In this document: piece by piece, positions 3,790 to 29,116 of the stretch
Layout: each line of letters starts with the position of its first letter
Position numbering within the stretch: the stretch's first letter is position 1
NCBI GenBank assembly: GCA_020632795.1
Contig: JACKEV010000010.1
Location: 1-31,126, forward strand
Source: Alphaproteobacteria bacterium
Lineage (GTDB): Bacteria > Myxococcota_A > UBA796 > CAJQPC01
Reading direction: 5' to 3'
DNA: 31,126 nt
Notes under the pieces: generated by a model
Seen by the model: only the letters and a program-made list of their open reading frames with translations
What the model was told of the DNA's origin: nothing
Databases searched by the model: none
Program-made: the position numbers and the translations under genes

Positions 3790-3808
3790 GGTCTCCTCCT
3801 TCCTGGGG

Positions 3809-8849: not shown

Positions 8850-8876
8850 CATGCCTCTCTTTCGCGGGAACCCCTC

Positions 8877-15287: not shown

Positions 15288-15755
15288 TCAGCGCGAGCAG
15301 CGCTCCTCGCCCACCTTCTTGCACAGGGAGTCGAAGAACCGCGCGCTGTCGGCGGCCAGCCCGAAGGTCAGGGTGATGAACTCGCCGCTGCTCTTCTCCA
15401 CCCGGATCCGCTCGCTGGTGCCGCCCTTGTCCAGCTCGGCGCTCACCACGTCTTCGAAGCGGACTTCGTAGGTGTCCTGCTTGTCATAGGTGCCCACCCG
15501 CTCGGTGGTCAGCACGTTCGCCGAGTCCGCCCCGCCGGTCACCGAGGGGTCGTAGTACCAGATGATCCCTTCCCCTTCGTCCAGCAGGCCGTGCTCGCTC
15601 AGCCCGTTGCGCTGGTCCTCGTTCATCTCGTTGACCGCCATGACCTTGGGGGAGCGGGCCTTCTCCAGCACCTGCTCGGTCCCCAGGAACCCACAACCCA
15701 TCGAGAGGCCGCCGCAGAGCGCGAACGCGGCCAGGAGAAATCGAGGGAGCTTCAT
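15288..15755 (-). CDS. Hypothetical lipoprotein
   Basis: MKLPRFLLAAFALCGG lipobox, RBS GGAGGTG. It lies 20 bp downstream of the acs stop, so it is probably co-transcribed. Confidence 0.5.
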   Translation of the reverse strand: MKLPRFLLAAFALCGGLSMGCGFLGTEQVLEKARSPKVMAVNEMNEDQRNGLSEHGLLDEGEGIIWYYDPSVTGGADSANVLTTERVGTYDKQDTYEVRFEDVVSAELDKGGTSERIRVEKSSGEFITLTFGLAADSARFFDSLCKKVGEERCSR

Positions 15756-17825: not shown

Positions 17826-18428
17826 ATGAAGCTCCTCCGCTGCCAGCAGTGCGGCGCGCCGGCCCACCCCGAGGCCGACGTGGACCGCTACGAGTGCCCG
17901 TTCTGCCACAGCGTCTTCACCCTCAACCGCCCCAGGCCCGAGGACGACCTCGAGCTGATCGCCGAGACCCTCCGGCCGCCCCCGGCCCCCTCCCGCGCGG
18001 TCGGCGCGCTGATGTTGCTGCCGGTGATCCTGCCGATCTTCATCATCGGCCTCACCGCCTCCATCATCGGCGTCGTCTTCTACCAGGTCGGCCTCATCCA
18101 GCTCCCCTTCTCCACCTGGGACGGCGCCGAGCCCCTGGTCTGCGCCGGCAACGAGCGCATGGAGATCAAGGGCGTCACCGCCCGCCTCCCCTACGGGCCG
18201 GTCATCGAGGCCAACGGCAACTGCCAGCTCACCCTGGTCGAGTGCGTGATCGAGGGCCCCACCGCCATCTACGCTGCGGGCAACGCACGGGTCCGGCTGG
18301 AGCGGGGCTCGGTCACCGGCGCGGACTTCGCCTTCGACCTCGGCGGCAACGCCCAGGTCGAGGTCCGGGGCGCCGCCGTCTCCGGGCCCCGGCGCGCCGG
18401 AGGCAACGCCCGCGTCCACGGCGACTGA
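17826..18428 (+). CDS. Zinc-ribbon membrane protein (CxxC...CxxC N-terminus, one TM helix, C-terminal repeat domain)
   Basis: CQQCG...CPFCH zinc ribbon. TM segment LMLLPVILPIFIIGLTASIIGVVFY. The C-terminal ~110 aa is paralogous to the next gene. Confidence 0.5.
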   Translation: MKLLRCQQCGAPAHPEADVDRYECPFCHSVFTLNRPRPEDDLELIAETLRPPPAPSRAVGALMLLPVILPIFIIGLTASIIGVVFYQVGLIQLPFSTWDGAEPLVCAGNERMEIKGVTARLPYGPVIEANGNCQLTLVECVIEGPTAIYAAGNARVRLERGSVTGADFAFDLGGNAQVEVRGAAVSGPRRAGGNARVHGD

Positions 18429-18434: not shown

Positions 18435-19013
18435 ATGCCCGCGTCCCCCTCCACGACCGCAAACACACCGCCCTACCCCCTCAGGCTGCGGCTGCTGGCC
18501 GGCGCGCTGACCGTGGGTTGGGGCGCCCTGCTCCTCTGGTGGTTCGGAGCCCTCCACGCGCTGGGCTGGATCCCCTGGGACGGCGAGGCGCCGATCGTCT
18601 GCGACGGCCGCACCCACCTCAAGCTCAGCGACGTGCGCGCCGCGCTCCCCGCCGGGCCGGTCATCGAGGCCCGCGGGCACTGCAGGCTGACCCTGGAGGA
18701 CTGCGACATCCGGGGCCCCACCGCCGTCGCCCTCTCCGACAACGCCCACGTCGTGCTGCGGGGGTGCGAGGTCACGGGAGACACCGCGCTCACCCTCAGC
18801 GGAGACGCCGAGGTCACGCTGGAGGACGCCGAGGTCAGCGGTGCGGTCGCTGTCGTGGCCGCCGACCGCTCCGTCGTGCGGCTCCGGTCCGGGCGCATCT
18901 CCGGCGCCCGGATCTCCGTCGATCTGCTCGGAGACGCAATCCTCGTCCACCAGGGCGGCGACGTCCTGGGGCGCGTGCGCACCGCCGACAGCCCGCGGGC
19001 CTACCACGACTGA
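18435..19013 (+). CDS. Paralogous membrane protein (TM helix plus the same C-terminal repeat domain)
   Basis: Shares W-DG-EP-VC-G...LP-GPVIEA-G-C-LTL-C-I-GPTA with the upstream gene. There is a 6-bp gap after the upstream stop. Confidence 0.5.
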   Translation: MPASPSTTANTPPYPLRLRLLAGALTVGWGALLLWWFGALHALGWIPWDGEAPIVCDGRTHLKLSDVRAALPAGPVIEARGHCRLTLEDCDIRGPTAVALSDNAHVVLRGCEVTGDTALTLSGDAEVTLEDAEVSGAVAVVAADRSVVRLRSGRISGARISVDLLGDAILVHQGGDVLGRVRTADSPRAYHD

Positions 19014-19022: not shown

Positions 19023-20495
19023 TCAGCGCATCCCGAACCCCCGCAGCTTGCGCTTGAGGGTGTTCCGGTCGATGCCCAGCGCCCGCGCCGCCTGGGAGAG
19101 GTTCCCGTCGAGCTGCGCCAGGGCGTCCGCGATCGCGGCGCGCTCGACCTCAGCCACCCGCTCGACCAGCGGGCGCAGCGGTCCACCCAGGGGCGCCACC
19201 GCCACCCGCACCGGGGCCCCCCGGATCTCCGGGGAGAGGTCCTCCACCGCCACCACATCCTCGCAGAACACCCCCCAGCGGGTCACCTCGGCCCGCAGCT
19301 CCCGCACGTTGCCCGGCCACCGCCAGGACCGCAGCGCGTCCCAGGCCGCCCGCGTCAGCTTCAGGGGCCGCCCCAGCTCCTCCATGAAGTGGGCCACCAG
19401 CCGCTCCAGGTCGCCGCCCCGATCCCGCAGCGCCGGGACCTCGAGGGTCGCGCCCCGCAGCCGATAGTAGAGGTCCTCCCGAAACCGGCCGGCGCGCACC
19501 TCGGACGCCAGGTCCCGGTGGGTCGCCGCGACCACCCGCACGTCCACCCGCACCGGCCGCTCGCCGCCCACCCGACGCAGCTCGCCCTCCTGCAACACCC
19601 GCAGGAGCTGGACCTGCACCCGGGGCGGCATCTCGCCCACCTCATCCAGGAACAGCGTGCCGCCGTCCGCCACCTCGAACAGGCCCCGGCGCCGCCCGGA
19701 GGCCCCGGTGAAGGCCCCCTTCTCGTGCCCGAACAGCTCGCTGGAGAGCACGCCCTCGGCGAACGCCCCGCAGTTCTCGGCGATGAACGGCCCTTCAGCC
19801 CGCGCGCTGGCGGAGTGGATCGCGCGGGCGACCAGCTCCTTGCCCGTCCCGGTCTCCCCATACACCAGCACCGGCACCTCGCTGGGCGCCACCCGGGCCA
19901 GCCTGCGTCGAAGCGTCTGCATGGGCGCGCTCTCGCCGATCATGCGGTCGCTGTCGGCGCGGCGCTCGGCGCGCAGCCGGACCAGCTCCTCGCGCAGGGC
20001 GCGGATCTCCGGGAAGCCCTCGATCTCCAGCCGCACCTCCCGGATGGCCCGGGGGTGGGGGTCTGGTACGAAGGCCGGCGGGATGACCTGGAGCATGCGC
20101 GCCCGGAGCAGCCCCGCCTGCACCAGGATGACCCACAGGGTCTGGGACTGGGGCGTGCCTGCCGAGAGCACCACGTCCAGCTCGGGCGCGCCGCGCAGCT
20201 CCTCGACCAGGGGCGCCAGCCCGAAGAACAGCGCCTCGTGGTCGGTTGGATCCGCCAGATCGATGAGCCGCAGCTCCGCGCGCAGGCCACGCTCCCGCAT
20301 CCGCGCCACCAGGCCCCGAGCGCCCTCCAGCCCCGAGGGGATGCTCAGCACCAGGACCCGGTCGTAGCGCCCCTGGCTCTCCGGCTGGTCGAGGAGCCGC
20401 AGCACAGGCCCCTGATCCGCCGGGTTGTGCGGGAGGGGAGGGCCGGGGACCGGGCGAGGGGCGCCGCGGTCGGACCAGGTGAGCAGCGTGGCCAT
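19023..20495 (-). CDS. rtcR: Sigma54-dependent transcriptional regulator with non-receiver N-terminal domain, RtcR-like (CARF-AAA+-HTH)
   Basis: AAA+ sigma54-interaction domain (GETGTGKE, GAFTGA, ESELFGHEKGAFTGA) and C-terminal Fis-type HTH. The N-terminal ~190 aa lack the receiver D-D-K pattern; the segment DVVLSAGTPQSQTLWVILVQAGLLRARMLQVIPP resembles the CARF domain of RtcR as remembered. ATG at 20495; the track ORF extension to 20861 is not supported. Confidence 0.7.
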   Translation of the reverse strand: MATLLTWSDRGAPRPVPGPPLPHNPADQGPVLRLLDQPESQGRYDRVLVLSIPSGLEGARGLVARMRERGLRAELRLIDLADPTDHEALFFGLAPLVEELRGAPELDVVLSAGTPQSQTLWVILVQAGLLRARMLQVIPPAFVPDPHPRAIREVRLEIEGFPEIRALREELVRLRAERRADSDRMIGESAPMQTLRRRLARVAPSEVPVLVYGETGTGKELVARAIHSASARAEGPFIAENCGAFAEGVLSSELFGHEKGAFTGASGRRRGLFEVADGGTLFLDEVGEMPPRVQVQLLRVLQEGELRRVGGERPVRVDVRVVAATHRDLASEVRAGRFREDLYYRLRGATLEVPALRDRGGDLERLVAHFMEELGRPLKLTRAAWDALRSWRWPGNVRELRAEVTRWGVFCEDVVAVEDLSPEIRGAPVRVAVAPLGGPLRPLVERVAEVERAAIADALAQLDGNLSQAARALGIDRNTLKRKLRGFGMR

Positions 20496-20533
20496 GACCC
20501 CCGAGCCATAGCACAGCCGTTGTCCGCGAGCTT

Positions 20534-20573
20534 GGCCCCCGGGGCTCGGCCCCCGGGGCTCGGCCCCCGGGCC
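20534..20573. repeat. Tandem 14-bp repeat GGCCCCCGGGGCTC (about 2.8 copies) upstream of rtcR
   Basis: Read directly from the sequence; it lies in the rtcR 5' region. Confidence 0.6.
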
Positions 20574-20674
20574 ATCTTCTGTCCGCCATGCGCCCCAGCA
20601 CGACGCATACACGCAAGAGATCAAGCTGAAACCCACCGAATCGAGGTTCCAAAGAACACCACACAAAAAAGTGT

Positions 20675-20702
20675 TTGCACTCTGTCGGTAATGTGGTAAA
20701 AC
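20675..20702 (+). promoter_or_regulatory. Sigma70-like promoter TTGCAC-16-TGgTAAAAC (extended -10)
   Basis: It sits in an unusually AT-rich patch facing the tRNA array. Two GC hairpins follow at 20902-20929 and 20935-20968. Confidence 0.35.
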
Positions 20703-20934
20703 ATCATCGTGGGCCGGGCAGAGGTCCCCCCACACGTCAAAGGAACCTGGCATGTACCGCTTCTCCGCCAACACCCCCTGTATCGCCGAACCCTGGCAGA
20801 CCATTCTGTCCGGTGTGGTGGTGCTCCCTGCCGCCGCCGCAGGCAACATGCCTGCGAGCAAGCGCCCGGGACAGGGTACGGCGGATCAAGCCGAGGGCTC
20901 AGGAAAAACAGCGTAGCAGGCTGTTTTCCTCCAT

Positions 20935-20975
20935 GAAGCCCCCGGCCCCGCAAGGCGCCGGGGGCTTCTGGTTTC
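20935..20975 (+). terminator. 12-bp-stem hairpin GAAGCCCCCGGC/GCCGGGGGCTTC followed by TGGTTTC
   Basis: Perfect stem read from the sequence with a U-containing tail. It may terminate a ~260-nt transcript from the 20675 promoter. Confidence 0.35.
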
Positions 20976-21084
20976 AGGGCCCCGTCGCCAGCCGGACCAG
21001 CCGAACGGGCTGCTCGCTCCGACGCCGCTGAGCGTCCGAGCGCCTGTCGCCCCGACCTCGCACACCACTGCGAGGGATGGACGA

Positions 21085-21103
21085 GTCTGTATTGAATACA
21101 GAC
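21085..21103. promoter_or_regulatory. Perfect palindrome GTCTGTATT-G-AATACAGAC next to a consensus TTGACA (21123-21128) upstream of the tRNA array
   Basis: 9-bp arms with no mismatch, which is rare in a 70% GC genome. The -35 consensus hexamer is 20 bp downstream and about 100 bp upstream of the first tRNA. Confidence 0.4.
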
Positions 21104-21227
21104 CTCACACAGTTCCTCTTCTTTGACATCGCGAATACGCATGGAGTTTCACGGGTCCGCGTCGCGCCAATCACGGCGGTCGTCAGCGGCGCGGGCCCAC
21201 CCCCCTCTCACCCAGGAGAGGGGTTGT

Positions 21228-21303
21228 GCGCCCGTAGCCAAGCGGTCCATAAGGCACCGGACTCTTAATCCGGCGATCGTGGGTTCGAATCCCACCGGGT
21301 GTA
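21228..21303 (+). tRNA. tRNA-Lys(CTT)
   Basis: Cloverleaf: acceptor GCGCCCG/CGGGTGT (two G-U pairs), anticodon arm CCGGA-CTCTTAA-TCCGG, T-arm GTGGG-TTCGAAT-CCCAC. Confidence 0.75.
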
Positions 21304-21391
21304 CCTCGGTTCTCCACGGGAGATGCTCGCGCAGCGCTCCACGGGAGATGCCTGTCCTGAGCCTCTGCGACCCCGCGTCGCCGAGGCCTGT

Positions 21392-21468
21392 CGGGGTGTA
21401 GCTCAGCCTGGGAGAGCGGCTGGTTCGGATCCAGCAGGTCGTCGGTTCAAATCCGGCCACCCCGACCA
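21392..21468 (+). tRNA. tRNA-Pro(CGG)
   Basis: Acceptor CGGGGTG/CACCCCG, anticodon loop TTCGGAT, T-arm GTCGG-TTCAAAT-CCGGC, encoded CCA. Confidence 0.85.
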
Positions 21469-21520
21469 TCACACGCCTGGAGCGGCCGGTTCTGCACCGG
21501 TCGGTCGCTCCGGGCTCCCT

Positions 21521-21592
21521 GCGGCCGTAGCTCAAAGGTAGAGCACCGTCTTGCCATGGCGGAGGTTGCGCGTTCGAGTCGCGTCGGCCGCT
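21521..21592 (+). tRNA. tRNA-Gly(GCC)
   Basis: Acceptor GCGGCCG/CGGCCGC, anticodon loop TTGCCAT, T-arm GCGCG-TTCGAGT-CGCGT. Confidence 0.85.
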
Positions 21593-21616
21593 TTCGGATC
21601 CACGCAGGGTCCTCGT

Positions 21617-21693
21617 CCGGGTGTAGTTCAGATGCGGAGAACGCCGCGCTGGGAGCGCGGAGGTCGCTGGTTCAAGTCCAGCCACTCGGACCA
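21617..21693 (+). tRNA. tRNA-Pro(GGG)
   Basis: Acceptor CCGGGTG/CACTCGG (one G-U), anticodon loop CTGGGAG, T-arm GCTGG-TTCAAGT-CCAGC, CCA encoded. Confidence 0.8.
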
Positions 21694-21703
21694 TCCCCCT
21701 CAA

Positions 21704-21787
21704 GGCGACGTAGCCAAGCGGAAAGGCACTCGGCTGCAACCCGGGGAGCGCGGCTCCTCCGGAGCGGGTTCAATCCCGCCGTCGCCT
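21704..21787 (+). tRNA. tRNA-Cys(GCA)-like, 84 nt, with a 14-nt insertion before the T-arm and a 6-nt T-loop (variant or pseudogene)
   Basis: Identical to canonical copy 21946..22016 in acceptor (GGCGACG/CGTCGCC, U73), D-arm and anticodon arm (loop CTGCAAC). It carries CTCCTCCGGAGCGG inserted between the variable loop and T-stem, and TTCAAT where the canonical copy has TTCAAAT. Confidence 0.55.
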
Positions 21788-21824
21788 CTTGTTCATGTTC
21801 CAACTGACCCATCACACTTCTCAA

Positions 21825-21908
21825 GGCGACGTAGCCAAGCGGAAAGGCACTCGGCTGCAACCCGGGGAGCGCGGCTCCTCCGGAGCGGGTTCAATCCCGC
21901 CGTCGCCT
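21825..21908 (+). tRNA. tRNA-Cys(GCA)-like, second identical 84-nt copy with the 14-nt insertion
   Basis: Exact 121-bp tandem duplicate (gene plus spacer) of 21704..21824. Confidence 0.55.
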
Positions 21909-21945
21909 CTTGTTCATGTTCCAACTGACCCATCACACTTCTCAA

Positions 21946-22016
21946 GGCGACGTAGCCAAGCGGAAAGGCACTCGGCTGCAACCCGGGGAGCGCGGGTTCA
22001 AATCCCGCCGTCGCCT
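21946..22016 (+). tRNA. tRNA-Cys(GCA), canonical 71 nt
   Basis: Acceptor GGCGACG/CGTCGCC with U73 discriminator (the Cys identity element), anticodon loop CTGCAAC, 4-nt variable loop, T-arm GCGGG-TTCAAAT-CCCGC. Confidence 0.8.
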
Positions 22017-22023
22017 CTTGTCT

Positions 22024-22100
22024 CAAGGTGTAGCTCAGGCGAGGAGAGCGGCTGGTTTGGAACCAGCAGGCCGCCGGTTCGAGTCCGGCCACCTTGACCA
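22024..22100 (+). tRNA. tRNA-Pro(TGG)
   Basis: Acceptor CAAGGTG/CACCTTG, anticodon loop TTTGGAA, T-arm GCCGG-TTCGAGT-CCGGC, CCA encoded. Confidence 0.85.
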
Positions 22101-22116
22101 TCTCTGACGACCACAT

Positions 22117-22188
22117 GCGTCCGTAGCTCAATGGTAGAGCGCTGCCCTCCCAAGGCAGAGGTTGCGCGTTCGAGTCGCGTCGGTCGCT
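22117..22188 (+). tRNA. tRNA-Gly(CCC)
   Basis: Acceptor GCGTCCG/CGGTCGC (one T-T mismatch), anticodon loop CTCCCAA, T-arm GCGCG-TTCGAGT-CGCGT. Confidence 0.75.
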
Positions 22189-22195
22189 TCCCTAC

Positions 22196-22266
22196 AGGGT
22201 CGAGCGCTGGTTGTGTCAGGCGGCCTCCAAAGTCGCCCTGCGAGAGTTCGAATCTCTCCGGCCCTG
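22196..22266 (+). tRNA. tRNA-Trp(CCA) with irregular D-arm
   Basis: Anticodon loop CTCCAAA and T-arm/acceptor GAGAG-TTCGAAT-CTCTC-CGGCCCT-G closely resemble bacterial tRNA-Trp (A1-U72, G73). The D-arm does not fold cleanly by eye. Confidence 0.55.
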
Positions 22267-22285
22267 CTCCTTCATCCAGCACCAC

Positions 22286-22359
22286 AGGCGAGTGGCGCAA
22301 TCGCGGAGCGCACCGCTCTCACACAGCGGAGGTTGCGGGTTCGAGTCCCGCCTCGCCTA
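22286..22359 (+). tRNA. tRNA-Val(CAC)
   Basis: Acceptor AGGCGAG/CTCGCCT, D-stem GCGC/GCGC, anticodon loop CTCACAC, T-arm GCGGG-TTCGAGT-CCCGC. Confidence 0.8.
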
Positions 22360-22389
22360 TCATCCCCAACAAGCCCAGAGGAGGTCCCC

Positions 22390-23484
22390 ATGTCCTCTTT
22401 CGCCGTCAAGGTCGTGCGGCTCCGCGTCGAGCCACACCACAACGCAGATGCCCTCGAGCTGGCGCGCGTGGGCGACTACCTCTCCGTGGTCCGCAAGGGC
22501 CAGTTCAGGACCGGCGACCTCGCCGCCTACATCCCCGAGCAGGCCATCGTCCCCGACGAGCTGCTCGAGGAGATGGGGCTCACGGGGCGCCTGGCCGGCA
22601 AGTTCGCCAACCGCGTCAAGGCCATCCGGCTGCGGGGCGTGCTGTCCCAGGGCCTCTGCTACCCGGCGCGGCCGGAGTGGCCCGAGGGCCTCGACGTGAC
22701 CGAGACCCTGGGCATCGTCAAGCACGAGCCCCCGGTCCCCACGTCGATGGACGGCCAGGCCTGGGCGGCCGGGCTGGACCGCTGCCTGCGCTACGACATC
22801 GAGAACATCAAGCGTTTCCCCGATGTCCTGGCCGACGGCGAGCCGGTCGTCTTCACCGAGAAGATCCACGGCACCTGGACCCAGCTCGGCCTCGTGCCCG
22901 AGGCCTGGGCCCACGCCGAGCACGGTCGGCTGGTCGTCAGCTCGAAGGGGCTCGCCGCGCGCGGCCTGGCGTTCATGCCGAACGCCCAGGAGAACGAGCG
23001 AAACCTCTACCTCCGGGTCGCCCGCACCCTGGACATCGAGGCCCGCCTGGAGGCGGCCTTCAGCGGCACGCTGAGCGCCGACGCGCCGGTCTTCGTCCTC
23101 GGCGAGACCTTCGGCGCGGGCGTCCAGGACCTCGCCTACGGCGCGAACGTCGGCCACGACGCCAGCCTCGGCTTCCGGGTGTTCGACGTCTACGTCGGCG
23201 CGGTCGGCCAGGGGCACTTCCTGGACGACACCGAGCTGGAGGCCGCGTGCCGTGCGCTCAGCCTGGAGCGTGTCCCGGTGGTCTACCGGGGTCCGTTCAG
23301 CCGCGAGGCGCTCGCCGAGCACACCGACGGCCGCGAGCAGGTCAGCGGAGAGGGCAAGCACATCCGAGAGGGTGTGGTCGTCCGACCCGTCCACGAGCGG
23401 CGCCACGACGAGCTGGGCCGCGTCCAGCTCAAGTCGGTGTCCGAGCGCTACCTGCTCCGCAAGGGTGGGACCGAGTACAACTGA
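22390..23484 (+). CDS. ATP-dependent RNA ligase (Rnl2/Rnl5-like nucleotidyltransferase) with N-terminal tRNA-binding OB fold (Myf/Trbp111/CsaA-like)
   Basis: ATG at 22390 with RBS AGAGGAGG. N-terminal VKVVRLRVEPHHNADAL...RLRGVLSQGLC matches the HPNAD...KLRGV.S.GM.C pattern of the tRNA-binding OB domain. FTEKIHGTW is the KxHG lysine-adenylylation motif I of RNA ligases. A hairpin follows at ~23489-23525. The part of the track ORF 5' of 22390 reads through tRNA genes and is rejected. Confidence 0.7.
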   Translation: MSSFAVKVVRLRVEPHHNADALELARVGDYLSVVRKGQFRTGDLAAYIPEQAIVPDELLEEMGLTGRLAGKFANRVKAIRLRGVLSQGLCYPARPEWPEGLDVTETLGIVKHEPPVPTSMDGQAWAAGLDRCLRYDIENIKRFPDVLADGEPVVFTEKIHGTWTQLGLVPEAWAHAEHGRLVVSSKGLAARGLAFMPNAQENERNLYLRVARTLDIEARLEAAFSGTLSADAPVFVLGETFGAGVQDLAYGANVGHDASLGFRVFDVYVGAVGQGHFLDDTELEAACRALSLERVPVVYRGPFSREALAEHTDGREQVSGEGKHIREGVVVRPVHERRHDELGRVQLKSVSERYLLRKGGTEYN

Positions 23485-23561
23485 GACGGCAGCGCGCGGC
23501 GCGGAGACGGGGCCCCCTCGCCTCCGCGCCCCAACCCCGATAGGAGGGGCGGTGAGGATGA

Positions 23562-23634
23562 GGGTTCGTAGCTCAAGCGGTAGAGCAACGGCCTTTTAAG
23601 CCGGCGGTTCCGGGTTCGAGTCCCGGCGGACCCA
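23562..23634 (+). tRNA. tRNA-Lys(TTT)
   Basis: Acceptor GGGTTCG/CGGACCC (one G-U), anticodon loop CTTTTAA, T-arm CCGGG-TTCGAGT-CCCGG. Confidence 0.8.
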
Positions 23635-23662
23635 CCTCCCTCCTGCCCATCGGGGACCCTGT

Positions 23663-23736
23663 TCCCTGGTCGTTCAACGGCAGGACACCTGGCTCTGAAC
23701 CAGGAGATGGAGGTTCGAGTCCTCCCTGGGGGACCA
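23663..23736 (+). tRNA. tRNA-Gln(CTG)
   Basis: Anticodon arm CCTGG-CTCTGAA-CCAGG, T-arm GGAGG-TTCGAGT-CCTCC, CCA encoded. The acceptor TCCCTGG/CTGGGGG needs three G-U pairs. Confidence 0.6.
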
Positions 23737-23768
23737 TCCGCTCGCGTCGGGCGTCATCGACGCAACAT

Positions 23769-23845
23769 GGGGCAGTAGCTCAACTGGGAGAGCGTCGGGC
23801 TGGCAGTCCGAAGGTTGTGGGTTCAATCCCCATCTGTCTCCACCA
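23769..23845 (+). tRNA. tRNA-Ala(GGC)-like with non-canonical acceptor (extra nt in 3' strand)
   Basis: 5' GGGGCAG, D-arm TAGCTCAACTGGGAGAGC, anticodon loop CTGGCAG, T-arm GTGGG-TTCAATC-CCCAT. The 3' strand CTGTCTCC-A-CCA is one nt longer than the CTGCTCC needed to pair with G3-U70. Confidence 0.55.
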
Positions 23846-23877
23846 TCCGCTCGCGTCGGGCGTCATCGACGCAACAT

Positions 23878-23967
23878 GGGGCAGTAGCTCAACTGGGAGA
23901 GCGTCGGGCTGGCAGTCCGAAGGTTGTGGGTCCTCCAGACCGGGTTCACTCCCATCTGTCTCCACCA
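23878..23967 (+). tRNA. tRNA-Ala(GGC)-like, 90 nt, with a 14-nt insertion before the T-arm and a 6-nt T-loop (variant or pseudogene)
   Basis: Identical to 23769 copy through the anticodon arm. It carries TCCTCCAGACCGGG inserted and TTCACT in place of TTCAATC. This is the same pair of changes seen in the Cys-like copies. Confidence 0.5.
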
Positions 23968-23997
23968 TCCGCTCGCGTCGGGCGTCATCGACGCAAC

Positions 23998-24074
23998 ATG
24001 GGGCAGTAGCTCAACTCGGGAGAGCGCCCGGTTCGCATCCGGGAGGTTGTGGGTTCAAGTCCCATCTGTCTCCA
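23998..24074 (+). tRNA. tRNA-Ala(CGC)-like (same non-canonical acceptor)
   Basis: Anticodon arm CCCGG-TTCGCAT-CCGGG, T-arm GTGGG-TTCAAGT-CCCAT. It shares the 5' spacer and acceptor of the 23769 copy. Confidence 0.55.
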
Positions 24075-24107
24075 CCATCCGCTCGCGTCGGGCGTATACG
24101 GCGCAAC

Positions 24108-24180
24108 ATGGGACGGTAGCTCAATCGCGGAGAGCGTCCGGCTTGCACCCGGGAGGCTGCGGGTTCGAATCCCGCCCGCT
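24108..24180 (+). tRNA. tRNA-Ala(TGC)
   Basis: Acceptor GGGACGG/CCGCTCC with G3-U70 and one A-C mismatch, anticodon loop CTTGCAC, T-arm GCGGG-TTCGAAT-CCCGC. The end coordinate is approximate. Confidence 0.65.
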
Positions 24181-24195
24181 CCACTCGCGGCAGAA

Positions 24196-24228
24196 GGGGC
24201 GGCGGCGCATGGGGAGCGCCGCCGCCCC
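24196..24228 (+). terminator. Perfect 13-bp-stem hairpin GGGGCGGCGGCGC-ATGGGGA-GCGCCGCCGCCCC inside the tRNA array
   Basis: Read directly from the sequence. No T-run. It lies between tRNA-Ala(TGC) and tRNA-Gln(TTG). Confidence 0.35.
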
Positions 24229-24237
24229 ACGGGGTCT

Positions 24238-24309
24238 GCGGGGATGGCCAAGCGGCAAGGCGCCGGGCTTTGAACTCGGAGAGCGTGGGTTCGATCCCCA
24301 CTCCCCGTT
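24238..24309 (+). tRNA. tRNA-Gln(TTG)
   Basis: D-arm GCC-AAGCGGCAA-GGC, anticodon arm CCGGG-CTTTGAA-CTCGG, T-arm GTGGG-TTCGATC-CCCAC, acceptor GCGGGGA/TCCCCGT. Confidence 0.7.
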
Positions 24310-24329
24310 CCTCCCCTTCCCATCTCCCC

Positions 24330-24403
24330 GCCGGTGTAGCTCAGTCGGCCAGAGCGCCTGACTCGTAATCAGGAGGTCGCCGGTTCGACTCCGGCCACCG
24401 GCT
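24330..24403 (+). tRNA. tRNA-Thr(CGT)
   Basis: Acceptor GCCGGTG/CACCGGC, anticodon loop CTCGTAA, T-arm GCCGG-TTCGACT-CCGGC. Confidence 0.85.
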
Positions 24404-24411
24404 CTCCATGC

Positions 24412-24483
24412 GCCCGGGTAGCTCAGTGGAAGAGCACCGCACTGGTAACGCGGAGGTCGGGAGTTCGATTCTCCCCCCGGGCA
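24412..24483 (+). tRNA. tRNA-Thr(GGT)
   Basis: Acceptor GCCCGGG/CCCGGGC, anticodon loop CTGGTAA, T-arm GGGAG-TTCGATT-CTCCC. Confidence 0.8.
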
Positions 24484-24487
24484 TTGT

Positions 24488-24560
24488 GCCCGCTTGGCTC
24501 AACAGGCAGAGCATCCGTCTTGTAAGCGGGAGGTTGCGAGTTCGATTCTCGCGGCGGGCA
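24488..24560 (+). tRNA. tRNA-Thr(TGT)
   Basis: Acceptor GCCCGCT/GGCGGGC, anticodon loop CTTGTAA, T-arm GCGAG-TTCGATT-CTCGC. Confidence 0.8.
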
Positions 24561-24569
24561 CTACCTCAT

Positions 24570-24642
24570 GCAGGCGTAGCTCACTTGGAAGAGCGTCGGG
24601 TTTCCACCCCGAAGGTCGCCGGTTCGACCCCGGTCGCCTGCT
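24570..24642 (+). tRNA. tRNA-Gly(TCC)
   Basis: Acceptor GCAGGCG/CGCCTGC, anticodon loop TTTCCAC, T-arm GCCGG-TTCGACC-CCGGT. Confidence 0.8.
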
Positions 24643-24689
24643 CTCACGAGACCCCATGCGTGTTCGCGATGTCACCTCAGGAGGCGGTC

Positions 24690-25277
24690 ATGGACAGCGT
24701 ATTGTTGCTGAACGCAGACTACACCCCATTGAGCGTGCTCGGCTGGCAGCGGGCGGTGAACCTGCTGCTCGACGAGAAGGCCAACGTGGTCGTCGAGTAC
24801 GCCGGTCGCGTCATCCGCTCCCAGTCGTTCGACCTGCCCTGGCCGGCGGTCGTCGCGCTGCACCGGTACCGGAAGCACAGCGAGCGCGTCCGGTTCAACC
24901 GCATCAGCGTGATCGCCCGGGACAGCGCGTCCTGCCAGTACTGCGGGGTCACCCCGAGGGGCCGCAACGGCCGCCTGGCCATCGACGAGCTGACCCTCGA
25001 CCACGTCGTGCCCCGCGCGCGCGCGGTCGACGGCCGGGTCCGGCTGCCGTGGAGCGGCCGTCGGGTGCCGGTGACCTCCTGGGAGAACGTCGTCATCGCC
25101 TGCGAGCCCTGCAACCACCGCAAGGCCGACCGCCTGCCCGAGGAGGCCGGCATGACCCTCCGGCGGCCGCCACACCGCCCGTCGTCCAGGGAGATCCTGC
25201 ACGCGAACCTGCTCCGGGCGAGGATCCCGGAGGAGTGGCGGATGTTCCTGCCCGAGGCGACGCTCCCGCAGAGCTGA
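24690..25277 (+). CDS. HNH endonuclease
   Basis: ATG at 24690 with RBS CAGGAGG; an alternative ATG lies at 24669. HNH signature CQYCG...LDHVVPRAR...N...CEPCNHRKAD (Cys4 zinc plus H-N-H). An intrinsic terminator follows. Confidence 0.75.
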   Translation: MDSVLLLNADYTPLSVLGWQRAVNLLLDEKANVVVEYAGRVIRSQSFDLPWPAVVALHRYRKHSERVRFNRISVIARDSASCQYCGVTPRGRNGRLAIDELTLDHVVPRARAVDGRVRLPWSGRRVPVTSWENVVIACEPCNHRKADRLPEEAGMTLRRPPHRPSSREILHANLLRARIPEEWRMFLPEATLPQS

Positions 25278-25283
25278 GACCAC

Positions 25284-25320
25284 GCGCCCCCCTTGACGGG
25301 GGGCGCGCTTGGTTGTATTT
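25284..25320 (+). terminator. Intrinsic terminator: 9-bp stem GCGCCCCCC-TTGAC-GGGGGGCGC followed by GCTTGGTTGTATTTGTTG
   Basis: Perfect stem plus T-rich tail directly after the HNH stop. Confidence 0.6.
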
Positions 25321-25334
25321 GTTGCTCAGGCAAC
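25319..25334. promoter_or_regulatory. Palindromic operator TTGTTGC-TCAG-GCAACA (copy 1) immediately upstream of marR
   Basis: The inverted repeat GTTGC/GCAAC ends 4 nt before the marR ATG. The identical 16-mer recurs at 25806-25821. Confidence 0.5.
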
Positions 25335-25337
25335 ATC

Positions 25338-25787
25338 ATGAAAGACCGCTTCTCCGACACCTCCAGCATCGACAAGGCGACGGCCTACCGGCTGCTGCGG
25401 GTGGCCCGGCTGCTCCGCCACGACCTGGCGGGCGCGCTGGCCCGGTGGGACCCGGACCTCACGCCGGAGCAGTACTTCGTCCTCTTCCGGCTGCACGAGC
25501 GCGACGGGCGCGCCCAGCGCGAGCTGGTGGACCCGGTGCTGGACGACCGGGCCAACATCACCCGCCTGGTGGACAAGCTCCAGGCGCGGGGGCTGGTCGA
25601 GCGGCGCCCGGACCCGGACGACGGGCGGCGCAACCAGGTGTGGCTCACCGACGCCGGCCGCGCCCTCTTCGACACGCTGCTGCCCCGCATCCCCGCCGAG
25701 CGGCGCCGCCTGTTCGGCGACCTCGCCCCCGGCGAGCTGGACGCGCTGCACGACCTGCTGGACCGACTGGAGGATCGCCTGGGGTGA
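25338..25787 (+). CDS. MarR-family transcriptional regulator
   Basis: 150 aa with a winged-helix region (LTPEQYFVLFRLHERDGRAQRELVDPVLDDRANITRLVDKLQARGLVERRPDPDDGRRNQVWLT) typical of MarR. Confidence 0.75.
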   Translation: MKDRFSDTSSIDKATAYRLLRVARLLRHDLAGALARWDPDLTPEQYFVLFRLHERDGRAQRELVDPVLDDRANITRLVDKLQARGLVERRPDPDDGRRNQVWLTDAGRALFDTLLPRIPAERRRLFGDLAPGELDALHDLLDRLEDRLG

Positions 25788-25805
25788 TCCTCTTTTTTCC
25801 CATGA

Positions 25806-25821
25806 TTGTTGCTCAGGCAAC
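25806..25821. promoter_or_regulatory. Palindromic operator TTGTTGC-TCAG-GCAAC (copy 2) upstream of the NTF2-like gene
   Basis: Exact 16-mer repeat of 25319-25334, 14 bp upstream of the ATG at 25836. Confidence 0.5.
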
Positions 25822-25835
25822 TTTTTGGAGGACCC

Positions 25836-26195
25836 ATGCCGCACGACGACATCGCCCGCACCCTGCACCGCTGGACCGAGGCCACCGCCGCCCAGGACGC
25901 CGACGCCCTGGCGGAGGTCTTCCACCCCGCCGCCGTGCAGGTGGTGGTCACCCCCGAGCGCGAGCTGGTGCTGACGACGGCGGACTACCTGGACATGCTG
26001 CGGGCGAAGCGGATCGGCGGCCACGCGGCGCAGGTGGTCGTCCACAGCGTGGAGGCCGCGGGCGCGGTGGCCGCCGCGCGGGTGAGTCGGACCACCGCGA
26101 AGGTCCGCTTCGACGACGCCGTGTCCCTGCTCAAGGTGGACGGGCAGTGGCGGGTGACCGGGGCGGCCGTGACGGTGACGCCGCTCGAGGGCTGA
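25836..26195 (+). CDS. NTF2-like / SnoaL-like small protein (hypothetical)
   Basis: 119 aa, RBS GGAGGA. The length and an alpha+beta pattern ending ...DGQWRVTGAAVTV are typical of the NTF2-like superfamily. Confidence 0.45.
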   Translation: MPHDDIARTLHRWTEATAAQDADALAEVFHPAAVQVVVTPERELVLTTADYLDMLRAKRIGGHAAQVVVHSVEAAGAVAAARVSRTTAKVRFDDAVSLLKVDGQWRVTGAAVTVTPLEG

Positions 26196-26281
26196 TGCGT
26201 TTCACATCATCGGTGCTTCCTGAATCACTACGTGTGATGCATAGCGCATCATGACCGGCTGAAACAGCGCGCTGGAGCGGT

Positions 26282-26297
26282 TGGCACGGCGCGTGCT
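26282..26297 (+). promoter_or_regulatory. Sigma54 (-24/-12) promoter TGGCACG-GCGC-GTGCT upstream of rtcB
   Basis: TGGCACG-N4-TTGCW consensus matched except for one position. GG and GC are spaced correctly. It lies about 30 bp upstream of the rtcB ATG. Inverted repeats ATCAC-TACGT-GTGAT and TGATGC-ATAGC-GCATCA lie 30-70 bp further upstream. Confidence 0.55.
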
Positions 26298-26325
26298 TCA
26301 TGATGGGGCATCCACGGAGCCCCTC

Positions 26326-27540
26326 ATGTGCACCCTGCCTGTCCACGCCCGCATCCTCGCCCGCGACGACGTCCGCGTTGAAGGCGACGCCGTCGATCAG
26401 CTCGCCCGCGTGGCGGGCTTCCCCGGCTGCGTGCGGGCTGTCGGCCTGCCGGACCTGCACCCCGGGCCAGGCATCCCCATCGGCGCGGCCTTCGCGTTCC
26501 GCGACGCGGTGTGGCCCGGTCTGGTGGGCGGAGACGCCGGCTGCGGCGCGCGGCTGGTGGCCCTCTCCAAGACCCGGATGCGCGGGGACGCCCTGGAGCG
26601 CCGCGTGCGGGAGTGGACCGAGGGCCCGCCGCTGCCGGACGCCGACCCCGACGCGCTGCTGGCGGCGGTCTGGGCCCGGGGCCCGCGCGGCCTGGCGGAG
26701 GTCCCGGGCGTGCCCGCCTCCCTGGCGGCGCTCGCCGAGGTCGAGGCCCCCGAGCCGGATGGCCCGGTCGCTCCCCTGCCCTTCGAGGGTCGGTTCGGGG
26801 CGTCCCTGGGCACGGTGGGTGGGGGCAACCACTTCGCCGAGATCAGCGAGGTCACCGAGGTGGCCGACAAGCCGCGCGCGCGGGCCCTGGGCCTCCGGCA
26901 CGGCGGGACGGTGGTGCTGGTCCACTCCGGGTCCCGGGGTCTGGGCAAGGCCCTGGCCGATCGGTGGGGCCTGCGGGCGCTGACCGGCGCCGACCAGGCG
27001 CAGTACCTGGGCGAGCTGGCCGGCGCGCTGCGGTTCGCCCGCGCCAACCGGCTGGTCATCGCGTGGAGGCTGCTGGGCGCCCTGGGCTCCGCGCGCCCCT
27101 CCCGCGTCGCCCATCAGGTCGACCTCATCCACAACAGCGTGGTCCGGGGCACCCTGGGCGGGCAGGGGGTATGGGTCCACCGCAAGGGCAGCGCCCCGGC
27201 CGAGGCCGGCCAGCCCACCGTGGTGCTGGGCAGCCGGGGCACGCCGAGCTGGGTGATGGAGGGCACCGGCTCGGAGGACAGCCTGGCCTCGGTGGCCCAC
27301 GGCGCGGGCCGGGCGATGGGGCGCAGCGAGGCGGTGGCCAAGCTCAAGCCGGCCATGACCCGGAAGTCCCTGCTGCGGACCGCGTCAGGGGGGCGGGTCA
27401 TCTGCGACGACCCCGAGCTGCTCTACGCCGAGCACCCCAAGGCCTACAAGCCCATCGGGCCGGTGGTCGACAGCCTGGTGGAGGCCGGGCTGGCCCGGCC
27501 AGTGGCGGCGCTGCTGCCGCAGTTCACGGTGAAGCGATGA
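26326..27540 (+). CDS. rtcB: RtcB-family RNA 3'-phosphate/5'-OH ligase
   Basis: 404 aa. Conserved RtcB metal- and GTP-site motifs DAGCGAR (D-x-GCG), GGGNHFAE (GxGNHF) and HGAGR (HNHAGR-like). ATG at 26326 with GGAG 8 nt upstream. Confidence 0.8.
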   Translation: MCTLPVHARILARDDVRVEGDAVDQLARVAGFPGCVRAVGLPDLHPGPGIPIGAAFAFRDAVWPGLVGGDAGCGARLVALSKTRMRGDALERRVREWTEGPPLPDADPDALLAAVWARGPRGLAEVPGVPASLAALAEVEAPEPDGPVAPLPFEGRFGASLGTVGGGNHFAEISEVTEVADKPRARALGLRHGGTVVLVHSGSRGLGKALADRWGLRALTGADQAQYLGELAGALRFARANRLVIAWRLLGALGSARPSRVAHQVDLIHNSVVRGTLGGQGVWVHRKGSAPAEAGQPTVVLGSRGTPSWVMEGTGSEDSLASVAHGAGRAMGRSEAVAKLKPAMTRKSLLRTASGGRVICDDPELLYAEHPKAYKPIGPVVDSLVEAGLARPVAALLPQFTVKR

Positions 27541-28163
27541 GGCGGCTGTTGCTGGTGTCCGCCGGCACCGGGCCGGTGGAGGTGCGGCGCTTCGTGGCGC
27601 TGCTGGCGGCCTGGTTGGCCGAGGCCTGCGCGTCGCGGGGGCTCGCGGTGCGCTCGGTGACCGTGAGCGGTGAGGACGAGGCGCCGCGGTCGGTGACGCT
27701 GGAGGTCTCGGGCGGGGCGTCGCTGGAGGGCCTGCTGGGGACCCACGCGCTGGTGGCCCGCAGCGCGACCCGGGGCCGCCGCGCCCGCAAGCGCTGGTAC
27801 GCCGGAGTCAGCGCGCACGACGCGCCCGTCGGGGCTGCGGTGGAGGTCGACCCCTCGGAGGTGAGCTTCACCGCGTGCCGGGCGGGGGGCCCCGGCGGGC
27901 AGCACGTCAACACCACCGCCAGCGCGGTGTGGGCCACCCATGGGCCCACCGGGCTGCGGGTACGTGTCGCCAGCGAGCGCTCCCAGCACGCCAACCGGAG
28001 GATCGCCCTGGCGCGGCTGGCGGAGGTGCTCGCCTCGCGGGACGCTGAGAAGCGCGCGGTGGGCCGGGACCGGCGATGGCGCTCCCACCATCGCCTGGAA
28101 CGGGGGCGTCCGGTGCGGACCTGGGGGCTGGATCCCGGTGGGGCTGCGCTGGTGGAGCGCTGA
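27537..28163 (+). CDS. prfH: Peptide chain release factor homologue PrfH (RF-H)
   Basis: 208 aa. GGQ motif (GGPGGQHVNTTASAV) in a short class-I RF-like fold. The start overlaps the rtcB stop (ATGA), the canonical rtcB-prfH coupling. Confidence 0.75.
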   Translation: MRRLLLVSAGTGPVEVRRFVALLAAWLAEACASRGLAVRSVTVSGEDEAPRSVTLEVSGGASLEGLLGTHALVARSATRGRRARKRWYAGVSAHDAPVGAAVEVDPSEVSFTACRAGGPGGQHVNTTASAVWATHGPTGLRVRVASERSQHANRRIALARLAEVLASRDAEKRAVGRDRRWRSHHRLERGRPVRTWGLDPGGAALVER

Positions 28164-28183
28164 GCGGTGGGTTAGCCGGCGAC

Positions 28184-29116
28184 ATGCGCGCCCCCTCCAT
28201 CCGCGACAGCATGAGCGCCCTGCTCCAGCTCCCCCGGCCTGCGCAGGTCGCGGCGGCCGAGGCGCTGCGGCGCAGCCTGGCCGATCGCAGCCCGCCCGAG
28301 GAGTGGAACACCCGCTTCGGGCCGGGCTCGCTGTTCGAGGCCTGGACGTCCACCCGGCTCACGACCGGGCTCTACGCGGAGAACGCCCTGGCGCTGCGCC
28401 CGGTGGTGACCCGACCGGGCTGGCGGGTGGTGGAGATCGGCGGGGGCGATGGTCGGCTGTGGGCCGGGCTGGCCGAGGGCATGGCCCCCGGCGAGCTGGT
28501 GGTCATCGACCCGGCGGAGGAGGTGCGCGCGGCGGTGATGCGGCGGCTGCCGCCCCAGGTGCGGCTTCGATTCGTGGTCTCGCCGGTCGAGGCGGTGAGC
28601 CTGCCCCCGGCGGACGCGGTGGTCTGCTCGCTGACGCTGCACCACCTTGCCGGTCGGGATGCGGCGGAGCGGGCCCGCTACGGCTTGAGCGGGCCTGGCA
28701 AGCTGGAGGTGCTCCAGCGTATCCGAGGGTCCATCGCCGAGCGACGCGGCTTCCTGCTGCTCAACGAGGCCGACGTGTACTGCGACGTGCAGATCCCGCC
28801 CGGCGACCCGCTGCTGGCCGACCACCTCGCCGACAGCTACCTGCGGCGCTGCGGGCGGGCCTTGCTCGACGAGCTGCGGGACCGCGAGGCCATTGGCGAC
28901 CCCCACCACATGGTGCCCCGGCTGGAGGCGATCCTGCACCGGTGGTGCCTGGACCAGCTCCGCCTCGCCCTGGTGCCCCGCGCCGAGCGCGACGTCTACG
29001 AGCTGGACGTGTTCCGTTGGCTGGAGGTGCTCGACAGGGCGGGGCTCAAGGTGGTGGAGCGCGGGTTCACCGACCCCTACGGGCTGTTCCACCGGTATGT
29101 GTGCCGGGCTGAATAG
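28184..29116 (+). CDS. Class I SAM-dependent methyltransferase (unknown substrate), third gene of the rtcB-prfH operon
   Basis: Motif I VVEIGGGDGRLW, with an acidic residue at the end of beta2 (VVIDPAEE). There is a 20-bp gap after prfH. A small stem and T-run follow at 29117-29134. Confidence 0.6.
   Translation: MRAPSIRDSMSALLQLPRPAQVAAAEALRRSLADRSPPEEWNTRFGPGSLFEAWTSTRLTTGLYAENALALRPVVTRPGWRVVEIGGGDGRLWAGLAEGMAPGELVVIDPAEEVRAAVMRRLPPQVRLRFVVSPVEAVSLPPADAVVCSLTLHHLAGRDAAERARYGLSGPGKLEVLQRIRGSIAERRGFLLLNEADVYCDVQIPPGDPLLADHLADSYLRRCGRALLDELRDREAIGDPHHMVPRLEAILHRWCLDQLRLALVPRAERDVYELDVFRWLEVLDRAGLKVVERGFTDPYGLFHRYVCRAE

Follow-up and report, generated by a model that had tools for sequence, protein, structure and literature searches.

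An RNA-repair locus was analysed at 19-29 kb of a 31-kb stretch of bacterial DNA (31,126 nucleotides, approximately 72% G+C), here called the window, in which the gene of an RtcR-like sigma-54 activator on the minus strand is parted from the rtcB-prfH operon by a long array of tRNA genes. Along the plus strand the regulator gene is followed by a 730-bp spacer, 11 tRNA genes, an RNA ligase gene, 11 further tRNA genes, an HNH endonuclease gene, a MarR-family regulator gene, an NTF2-like gene, rtcB, prfH and a methyltransferase (MTase) gene (Table 1). All elements named in an earlier note on this DNA are present, with coordinates that proved essentially right upon domain searches, tRNA calls and a promoter scan; the domain searches confirmed the Rnl-type ligase, the HNH endonuclease, the MarR/NTF2-like pair, RtcB, PrfH and a class-I MTase. 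The relatives compared at this locus (L001, L002-L004, L005 and L097/L098) are contigs encoding homologues of the regulator, L001 being from GCA_020632815.1. For the regulator, the ligase and the HNH protein alike, the nearest homologues come from Myxococcota; the host is therefore probably Myxococcota-like and the label of the record, 'Alphaproteobacteria bacterium', probably wrong.

Table 1. Features of the locus (window positions unless L001 is named)
Feature	Position	Strand	Basis
rtcR-like gene: CARF, sigma-54 AAA+ (GAFTGA) and Fis-type helix-turn-helix activator, 490 aa	19023-20495	-	Pfam, PADLOC, hhalign
Conserved promoter-like box ACACAAAAAAGTGTTTGCAC, facing either rtcR or the small open reading frame	20661-20680		Conserved with L001
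Small open reading frame (ORF), 54 aa, hydrophobic N-terminal part; may be non-coding	20752-20916	+	Sequence reading
G+C-rich terminator-like hairpin, conserved with L001	20936-20978	+	L001 counterpart with clear T-tract
Candidate array control region: palindrome CTGTATTGAATACAG (21087-21101), then TTGACATCGCGAATACGCATGGA (21123-21145)	21087-21145	+	Almost base-for-base conserved with L001
tRNA block 1, 11 genes: Lys-CTT, Pro-CGG, Gly-GCC, Pro-GGG, Cys-GCA x3 (two with 13-nt insert), Pro-TGG, Gly-CCC, atypical Trp-CCA, Val-CAC	21228-22359	+	ARAGORN; Rfam 50-66 bits except Trp
Rnl5-type (DraRnl/NgrRnl family) ATP-dependent RNA ligase; GGAGG ribosome-binding site, EKIHG lysine motif	22387-23484	+	TIGR02306, Pfam
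tRNA block 2, 11 genes: Lys-TTT, Gln-CTG, Ala-GGC, Ala-GGC copy with 13-nt insert (23878-23963), Ala-CGC, Ala-TGC, Gln-TTG, Thr-CGT, Thr-GGT, Thr-TGT, Gly-TCC	23562-24643	+	ARAGORN, Rfam
tRNA genes with 13-nt insert	21704-21788, 21825-21909, 23878-23963; L001 8104-8190, 8447-8533, about 8690-8775		
HNH endonuclease, typical companion of long tRNA arrays	24690-25277	+	Pfam HNH
Terminator-like hairpin, 10 G-C pairs, ending the array/HNH unit	25283-25307	+	
MarR-family regulator (25338-25787) and NTF2-like/Lumazine_bd_2 protein (25836-26195)	25338-26195	+	Pfam
Two inverted repeats, TGATGCGTTTCACATCA and TGATGCATAGCGCATCA, putative upstream activating sequences (UAS) for the RtcR-like activator	26193-26251	+	Motif scan, conservation
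Sigma-54 promoter TGGCAC-N5-GTGCT, TGGCACGGCGCGTGCT	26282-26297	+	11/12 to consensus, conserved in L001, L002, L005
rtcB, 3'-P/5'-OH RNA ligase, probably of the PrfH-linked RtcB2 type, 404 aa	26326-27540	+	Pfam RtcB, 242 bits
prfH, release-factor homologue with GGQ	27537-28163	+	PDB matches, TIGR03072
Class-I SAM methyltransferase, 20 nt downstream of prfH	28184-29116	+	Pfam Methyltransf_25/11/12

The RtcR-like regulator and the rtcB-prfH operon

The regulator contains the Pfam domains Sigma54_activat (PF00158, 235 bits), AAA_lid_14 (PF25601) and HTH_8 (PF02954), and the GAFTGA motif is present in its translation. Its N-terminal 183 residues were not recognised by Pfam and NCBIfam scans at default thresholds, the Pfam RtcR family gave 13.8 bits for the N-terminal domain, under its cutoff of 23.1, and a PDB sequence search with the CARF profile of the regulator returned no match; a fold search was used in its place. 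The CARF-like N-terminus that the earlier note had read into this RtcR-like protein was nevertheless recovered by profile comparison: the PADLOC model RtcR_PspF2--CARF_AAA_HTH matches the regulator from end to end (E 2.5e-143), and a profile of the N-terminal region, aligned with residues 1-190 of E. coli RtcR, gives an hhalign probability of 97.3% (E 2.6e-11). Over the whole protein, identity to the E. coli regulator amounts to 34%. Since it scores 314.6 bits against the NCBIfam RtcR equivalog model NF038308, below the cutoff of 650, we regard the regulator as a divergent, CARF-bearing member of the RtcR family that matches PADLOC RtcR_PspF2 and is no equivalog of the enterobacterial RtcR. 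Myxococcota (Sorangium, Polyangium, Nannocystaceae, Haliangium and Labilithrix) are rich in full-length homologues of 60-71% identity, some of these homologues carrying the NCBI name RtcR family; a literature search for 'RtcR_PspF' found nothing.

The two genes of the operon are tightly joined, with the start of prfH overlapping the stop of rtcB (ATGA, 27537-27540). RtcB clears the cutoff of the Pfam RtcB family; against the PrfH-linked models it scores 268.7 bits for TIGR03073 (cutoff 271.8) and 305 versus 407 for PRK09588, its position before prfH agrees with that subgroup, and it is 30% identical to E. coli RtcB1. The best PDB matches of PrfH are the PrfH entries 9mor and 7sa4 (E 1e-26 and 4e-24), ahead of RF2, and its score against TIGR03072 is 153.6 bits, slightly under the cutoff of 166.65. 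An operon of two genes with overlapping stop and start, a GGQ motif in PrfH and an RtcB with about 30% identity to RtcB1 are likewise found in the described RtcB2-PrfH module (PMC9304027, PMC9223846, PMC1586002), whose E. coli proteins act on ribosomes that colicin E3 has cleaved at the 16S decoding centre, rescuing and re-ligating them (PMC9304027, PMC9223846). The present pair differs from it in adjoining an RtcR-like activator and in scores that fall just under the TIGR03072 and TIGR03073 cutoffs. RtcR was not mentioned in the PrfH papers that were searched for it, and on this ground the pairing of an RtcR-type CARF sensor with rtcB2-prfH is considered new.

A near-consensus sigma-54 promoter had been proposed before rtcB, and this stands: it is the best sigma-54 site in the 31 kb (the next best reaches 9/12 in the consensus scan), lies 28 nt before the rtcB ATG at 26326 and is kept as TGGCAC-N5-nTGCT in the relatives listed in Table 1. 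The putative UAS precede it; the pattern TGATG-N7-CATCA has its sole two matches in the window here, at 26193 and 26235, where 0.31 would be expected. Upstream of the promoter in L002 stands TGATGCGTTTCTCATCA, one position off the first site of the window, and a related motif is present in L001.

In E. coli and Salmonella the rtcR-rtcBA locus (PMC7790460, PMC9650030) has the same kind of CARF-AAA+-HTH regulator, a sigma-54 promoter before rtcB and a short divergent gap, which corresponds to the ancestral layout of the present locus; the gap, given as about 200 bp in the earlier note, measures 188 bp in E. coli. The target here is rtcB2-prfH rather than rtcB1-rtcA, without an RtcA cyclase. The Salmonella RtcR is activated by tRNA halves with 2',3'-cyclic phosphate ends (PMC7790460).

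The tRNA array as an inserted unit

In three related lineages the regulator and rtcB-prfH stand back to back, divergently oriented and without tRNA genes, namely L002-L004 (regulator 67% identical, gap of 141 bp), L005 (66-67%, 133 bp) and L097/L098 (60%, 89 bp). L001, with a regulator of 71% identity, has the same order as the window (regulator, 12 tRNAs, ligase, 10 tRNAs, HNH, rtcB-prfH), except that an opposite-strand gene lies between HNH and rtcB; genes for acetyl-CoA synthetase (ACS, 80%) and a DUF481 protein (61%) are found beside the regulator in both. Because three lineages are compact and free of tRNAs and L001 holds the same array at the same chromosomal site, the array is best understood as a derived, inherited insertion, acquired once in a common ancestor with GCA_020632815.1. 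The stretch between regulator and rtcB, about 5.8 kb in the earlier note and 5.7 kb here, had indeed been taken for an insertion. An identical arrangement in close relatives, as ancestral core genome and with no RtcR-dependent expression of rtcB, had been named as a finding that would speak against the note's reading; half of this applies, as L001 has the arrangement.

The limits of the insertion had been given as 20496-26281, of which the right end has to be moved to about 26192, as the putative regulator sites and the promoter occupy 26193-26297. Foreign DNA then fills the stretch from the regulator start to about 26192, with the enhancer-like sites and the promoter left with rtcB and the ancestral control region intact on the rtcB side. 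Activators of this type act in trans. Since the putative sites and promoter remained beside rtcB, the separation of regulator and target emphasised in the earlier note carries no regulatory meaning.

A chimeric contig assembled from unrelated pieces might be suspected, given that the source is a metagenome-assembled genome (MAG) and that repeated tRNA units are hard to assemble. This is, in our view, scarcely credible, as the same order recurs in an independent assembly (L001) at 67-80% protein identity throughout and the HNH protein is found also on a second contig from another source.

The array module spans about 20.66 to 25.31 kb and comprises promoter- and operator-like sequences, 22 tRNA genes, the Rnl5-type ligase, the HNH gene and a terminator-like hairpin. 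In an alignment of the spacers upstream of the first tRNA, the window and L001 have diverged apart from a few islands: ACACAAAAAAGTsTTTGCAC, the terminator-like hairpin, and the palindrome TGTATTsAATACA followed by TTGACATCrCGwATACGCATGGA. A second terminator-like hairpin stands at the 3' end of marR. The scan of the window found neither a sigma-54 promoter nor TGATG-N7-CATCA upstream of the array. From the conserved upstream boxes, the terminator-like hairpins and the lack of a sigma-54 site near the array, we infer that the array is a separate transcription unit with an operator of its own.

The 22 tRNA genes, one fewer than the 23 tRNA or tRNA-like genes counted previously, are co-oriented on the plus strand within 21228-24643, with the ligase gene as their sole interruption. 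The Rfam gathering score is reached by 21 of them, including the copy at 23878-23963 that was overlooked by ARAGORN, and 15 exceed 60 bits. Nine amino acids are served (Lys, Pro, Gly, Cys, Trp, Val, Gln, Ala and Thr), the sets of isoacceptors being complete for Pro, Gly, Ala and Thr. A comparison of the window with L001 gives 64-89% identity for tRNAs of the same anticodon and a different anticodon content, the L001 array being without Pro-TGG, Gly-GCC and Thr-TGT; the Gly-GCC of the window array is 75% identical to a stand-alone Gly-GCC of a Myxococcales MAG locus (L008). An aberrant D-arm marks the 'tRNA-Trp(CCA)' (window 22196-22267, called by ARAGORN only and below 25 bits in Rfam; L001 counterpart 7371-7442, 30.9 bits), which takes the same place in both arrays, just before the ligase gene, with Val-CAC intervening in the window. 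In L001 a 'tRNA-Thr(CGT)' (8580-8653) is an anticodon-shifted copy, near-identical to the adjacent tRNA-Lys(CTT) (8290-8363) except for the anticodon. Several members look defective, which qualifies the large supply of spare tRNAs that the earlier note described. Indirectly, through fast divergence, defective copies and the different anticodon content of the sister array, the picture would fit surplus copies under relaxed constraint, as reported for long arrays (L-arrays).

The complete Pro, Gly, Ala and Thr sets, together with the syntenic chromosomal DNA, could also point to an ancestral housekeeping operon, that is, the main source of these tRNAs in the genome, which the compact relatives would have lost. 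We consider this very unlikely: three separate lineages are without the array, its tRNAs diverge fast and include defective copies, and the HNH gene ties it to horizontally spread arrays. Any genome needs the three tRNAs that are missing from the L001 array, and those genes must therefore exist elsewhere in the L001 genome.

Two side observations concern tRNA structure. A 76-nt 'Ser(AGA)' of L001 is without the long variable arm, and the Ala-GGC and Ala-CGC of the window seem to be longer by one base on the 3' side of the acceptor stem, so that the G:U pair is moved off 3:70.

Relationship to known arrays and possible function

Relatives of the HNH protein stand beside tRNA arrays in L001, L016, L019, L021, L023, L046, L071, L101, L118, L130, L175, the Mycolicibacterium plasmid pCBMA213_1 and a Nostoc plasmid; these include 5 of 80 metagenome loci and 4 of 80 viral contigs (8 to 42 tRNAs). 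The relative in pCBMA213_1 (38% identical) lies inside 29 tRNAs and that of the Nostoc plasmid (35.5% identical) beside 21, and in L016, a contig of a 9.4-Mb genome, 37 tRNAs (2375-9255) with an embedded EF-Tu gene are followed by a relative of 55% identity (10001-10582). The family is broad, most relatives having no array nearby. The block between regulator and rtcB is, as judged from these resemblances, a long tRNA array (L-array or tRNA array unit) of the horizontally spread kind.

Two of these comparison arrays have further neighbours. At L016 a Ro60/TROVE gene (13892-15511) lies 3 kb beyond the HNH gene, a further array beside RNA quality-control genes; Ro60 is a member of the RtcR regulon in Salmonella. 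The metagenomic array L019, with 15 tRNAs and an HNH relative, also has a tmRNA gene and an RF-1-domain-like stretch (6149-6488), like arrays of the mycobacteriophage type.

Cyanobacterial L-arrays include an HNH gene and have rtcB as a frequent neighbour, which is co-regulated in Anabaena (PMC8421152, PMC10272220). Like the present array, they hold about 20-40 co-oriented tRNAs, some of them non-canonical, are patchily distributed, adjoin an HNH endonuclease of the same family and are linked to rtcB by neighbourhood or regulation. Unlike them, the present array is chromosomal, belongs to a Myxococcota-like host, embeds an Rnl5 ligase, serves 9 amino-acid families only and neighbours an operon of the rtcB2-prfH type under an RtcR-like sigma-54 activator. 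The Anabaena L-array is normally silent and is induced by translational stress (PMC8421152); because TrcR, the repressor of cyanobacterial L-arrays, is restricted to cyanobacteria, control of the present array must differ from that in Anabaena.

The tRNA array units of mycobacteria, located on plasmids, on phages or in chromosomes (PMC5966550, PMC12803027), resemble the present array in their HNH link, in growth by duplication and, in some, in ribosome-rescue or RF-1-domain genes; HNH is their most widespread linked gene and RF-1-domain genes are carried by some (PMC5966550). They differ in that no plasmid or phage context surrounds the present array and that PrfH here belongs to an older resident operon with RtcB rather than to the cargo of the array. 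Most mycobacterial G2 arrays have an XRE regulator (PMC5966550), whereas the present array has no adjoining helix-turn-helix regulator gene. The architecture had been put forward as undescribed, which is too strong, since L-arrays near rtcB in cyanobacteria and near RF-1-domain genes in mycobacteria have been published (PMC8421152, PMC10272220, PMC5966550). Each part is of a known kind, and it is the combination that has not been described previously: its novelty lies in the host group, in an Rnl5 ligase within the array, in the precise point of insertion in the rtcR/rtcB control region and in the putative RtcR-type control of rtcB2-prfH. A literature search for tRNA gene arrays in Myxococcota found nothing.

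The ligase scores 242 bits against TIGR02306/DRB0094 (cutoff 151) and matches PF21189 and PF09414, with the Naegleria RNA ligase (NgrRnl) as its best PDB match. As in DraRnl (Deinococcus) and NgrRnl (Naegleria), an N-terminal OB domain is joined to a nucleotidyltransferase domain; the present ligase differs from these in being embedded in a tRNA array. The earlier note had suggested a search for a tRNA_bind domain, and this returned no such family, the N-terminus matching the PHA02142 OB domain. The copy at the same position in L001 is 74% identical. A phage origin was considered and rejected, as phage relatives are at most 42% identical compared with about 70% for stand-alone Myxococcota genes. 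On a phage-like contig (L010, regions 4547-6097 and 8010-8399), a 516-aa fusion of HNH and Rnl5 ligase is 67% identical to the ligase of the window; that contig also encodes PTH2, Cpn10 and a tmRNA.

In the reading that we favour with moderate confidence, an L-array entered an rtcR-like/rtcB2-prfH RNA-repair locus at its short, divergent control region, the activator sites and promoter stayed with rtcB, and the array forms a unit of its own. The RtcR-like activator would still switch on rtcB2-prfH in trans once its CARF domain senses RNA damage, and RtcB2-PrfH would then rescue and re-ligate ribosomes cut in the decoding centre. The array would normally be repressed through the palindrome upstream of its promoter-like box and, as in Anabaena, could serve as a source of additional, in part degenerate tRNAs during attacks on translation or on tRNAs; the ligase may reseal 3'-OH/5'-P nicks, and the HNH enzyme may drive rearrangement or spread of the array. 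The co-location probably stems from an affinity, seen repeatedly, of such arrays for genes of RNA repair and ribosome rescue and not from a shared sigma-54 control. Functional coupling of the array with the rtc genes may be plausible; a looser functional affinity, in which arrays come to rest near RNA-repair genes, is plausible too and has precedent in two other phyla.

The earlier note went further and proposed a single countermeasure island, in which the tRNAs, the Rnl5 ligase, HNH, rtcB2, prfH and the MTase would form one RtcR-controlled regulon against toxins that cut tRNA or rRNA. All genes from about 20.7 to 29.1 kb do lie on one strand, and two ligases, a rescue factor and a CARF sensor make a coherent theme; moreover, the array, its HNH gene and rtcB are co-regulated in Anabaena (PMC8421152, PMC10272220), and the arrangement has outlived divergence to about 70% protein identity. 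The layout speaks otherwise and lends no support to RtcR control of the tRNAs or the ligase. The sole sigma-54 promoter and the UAS come after the array, directly before rtcB, one terminator-like hairpin follows the HNH gene and another stands at the marR 3' end, and in L001 an opposite-strand gene parts HNH from rtcB. The MTase, MarR and NTF2-like genes are not conserved, and the co-regulation in Anabaena runs through a cyanobacteria-restricted repressor, not RtcR. We thus judge one common regulon to be unlikely. Nor do both chemistries of RNA end-joining, as listed in the earlier note, amount to a full second pathway of repair, the Rnl5 ligase being without an accompanying end-healing enzyme.

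A mobile tRNA array may instead have landed by chance in a tolerant intergenic region, neutrally or selfishly and with no functional relation to the rtc genes. A single evolutionary event, the many HNH relatives that accompany arrays in unrelated contexts or, for the most part, no array at all, the degenerate look of several array members and the apparently independent regulation would all be in keeping with this. Set against it are the high Rfam scores that most of the tRNAs retain, the conservation of the upstream control boxes amid a diverged spacer, which implies selection, and the recurrence in two further phyla of arrays that adjoin rtcB or genes of the RF-1 type (PMC8421152, PMC5966550). 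Chance alone is rather unlikely in our estimation.

Several points weigh against the insertion of a functional L-array as favoured here. The arrangement is present in two genomes only, and because these share ancestry, the co-location represents one evolutionary event that was perhaps due to chance. Among the proteins of 19-29 kb no integrase or transposase domain was detected with Pfam and NCBIfam, and a repeat search found no att-like direct repeats flanking the insertion. The promoter, operator and terminator calls derive solely from consensus or conservation, no canonical sigma-70 promoter or -10 element was found at 20.4-26.4 kb in the consensus scan, and the sigma-54 promoter motif was not found in L097. 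RtcB and PrfH fall just under the NCBIfam equivalog cutoffs. The missing end-healing enzyme counts here as well, and because the closest relatives of the ligase (about 70% identity) are stand-alone Myxococcota genes without tRNA arrays, the ligase may have been recruited locally.

A bolder proposal, to which we give little weight, is that the array acts as a sacrificial sensor. The surplus tRNAs, among them the odd hairpin-bearing copies, would be preferred substrates or decoys for tRNA-cutting toxins, the resulting halves with cyclic phosphate would be the CARF ligand that switches on rtcB2-prfH, and the Rnl5 ligase would reseal the 3'-OH/5'-P nicks.

With this locus, horizontally spread tRNA arrays are seen beside RNA-repair or ribosome-rescue genes in a third and distant group of bacteria, which strengthens the idea that such arrays are part of a response to damage of the translation machinery rather than junk. 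The locus also suggests that the ribosome repair module of the colicin-E3 type, RtcB2-PrfH, can stand under an RtcR-like CARF sensor, which raises the question of which damaged RNA is sensed. Locus pairs with and without the array provide a clean natural system for comparison. Current concepts remain unchanged unless functional coupling is shown.

Variant tRNAs and neighbouring features

Insertions of 13 nt just 5' of the T-loop (GGTTCRA) occur in four tRNA species, Cys and Ala-GGC in the window and Pro-CGG and a Val-GAC-like tRNA in L001, the last of which is the reading of an alignment and was called neither by ARAGORN nor by Rfam at gathering score. Each insert can form a hairpin of 4-5 bp with a TCC loop, the stems being different (GCTCC/GGAGC, GGTC/GACC and CCGC/GCGG). 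The adjacent T-loops are slightly degenerate, and intact copies of the tRNAs adjoin. Predicted folding gives an extra arm in the Cys and Ala copies and none in the Pro copy. No such inserts were seen in other arrays, apart from one possible case in L130. The inserts appear to be four independent events at one position of the T-arm; scars left by HNH cleavage, an additional arm or the decay of pseudogenes may account for them. In a bolder view, to which we again give little weight, the HNH enzyme would have left them on cleaving tRNA genes in the T-loop, or they would define a new class of modified tRNA-like RNAs. Excisable mini-introns are a poor fit, as removal does not restore a canonical T-loop.

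The palindromic TTGTTGCTCAGGCAAC occurs at 25319-25334 and 25806-25821, just upstream of the marR and NTF2-like genes, and is probably a MarR operator, the two genes forming a small regulatory pair complete in itself. Homologues of the MarR, NTF2-like and MTase proteins were not found in L001, L002, L005 and L097 (for the MTase by tblastn), and the marR/NTF2-like pair is best seen as lineage-specific cargo. The MTase most likely starts at 28184; it has no NCBIfam match and generic methyltransferase matches only in the PDB, and a Hen1- or PrmC-like identity was rejected on account of these generic matches and the lack of an NPPY motif. Because the MTase is absent from all relatives examined, rtcB-prfH-MTase, previously described as one target unit, is not a conserved operon, and the membership of the MTase in the RNA-repair system appears doubtful.

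The L001 counterpart of the small ORF between the regulator and the array encodes 59 aa at the same place (small unit at L001 9072-9251), with scant sequence similarity. The box, the small ORF and the hairpin could together correspond to a small protein, a small RNA or a leader. A leader peptide rich in the amino acids of the array was considered and dropped, the enrichment not being significant by a rough hand estimate on two peptides. Directly upstream of the regulator gene, the 14-nt unit GCTYGGCCCCCGGG is repeated three times in tandem (20530-20571).

Two adjacent paralogous ORFs, 17826-18428 (200 aa) and 18435-19013 (192 aa), lie between the ACS gene and the regulator and are not present in L001; each product has a hydrophobic segment and a repetitive C-terminal part rich in G, A and V, and the first begins with a zinc-ribbon-like stretch. 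A gene for NAGPA (phosphodiester glycosidase) is located on the rtcB side in the window (29134-30450, minus strand) and on the regulator side in L097/L098 (L097 9538-11067), the two proteins being 33% identical.

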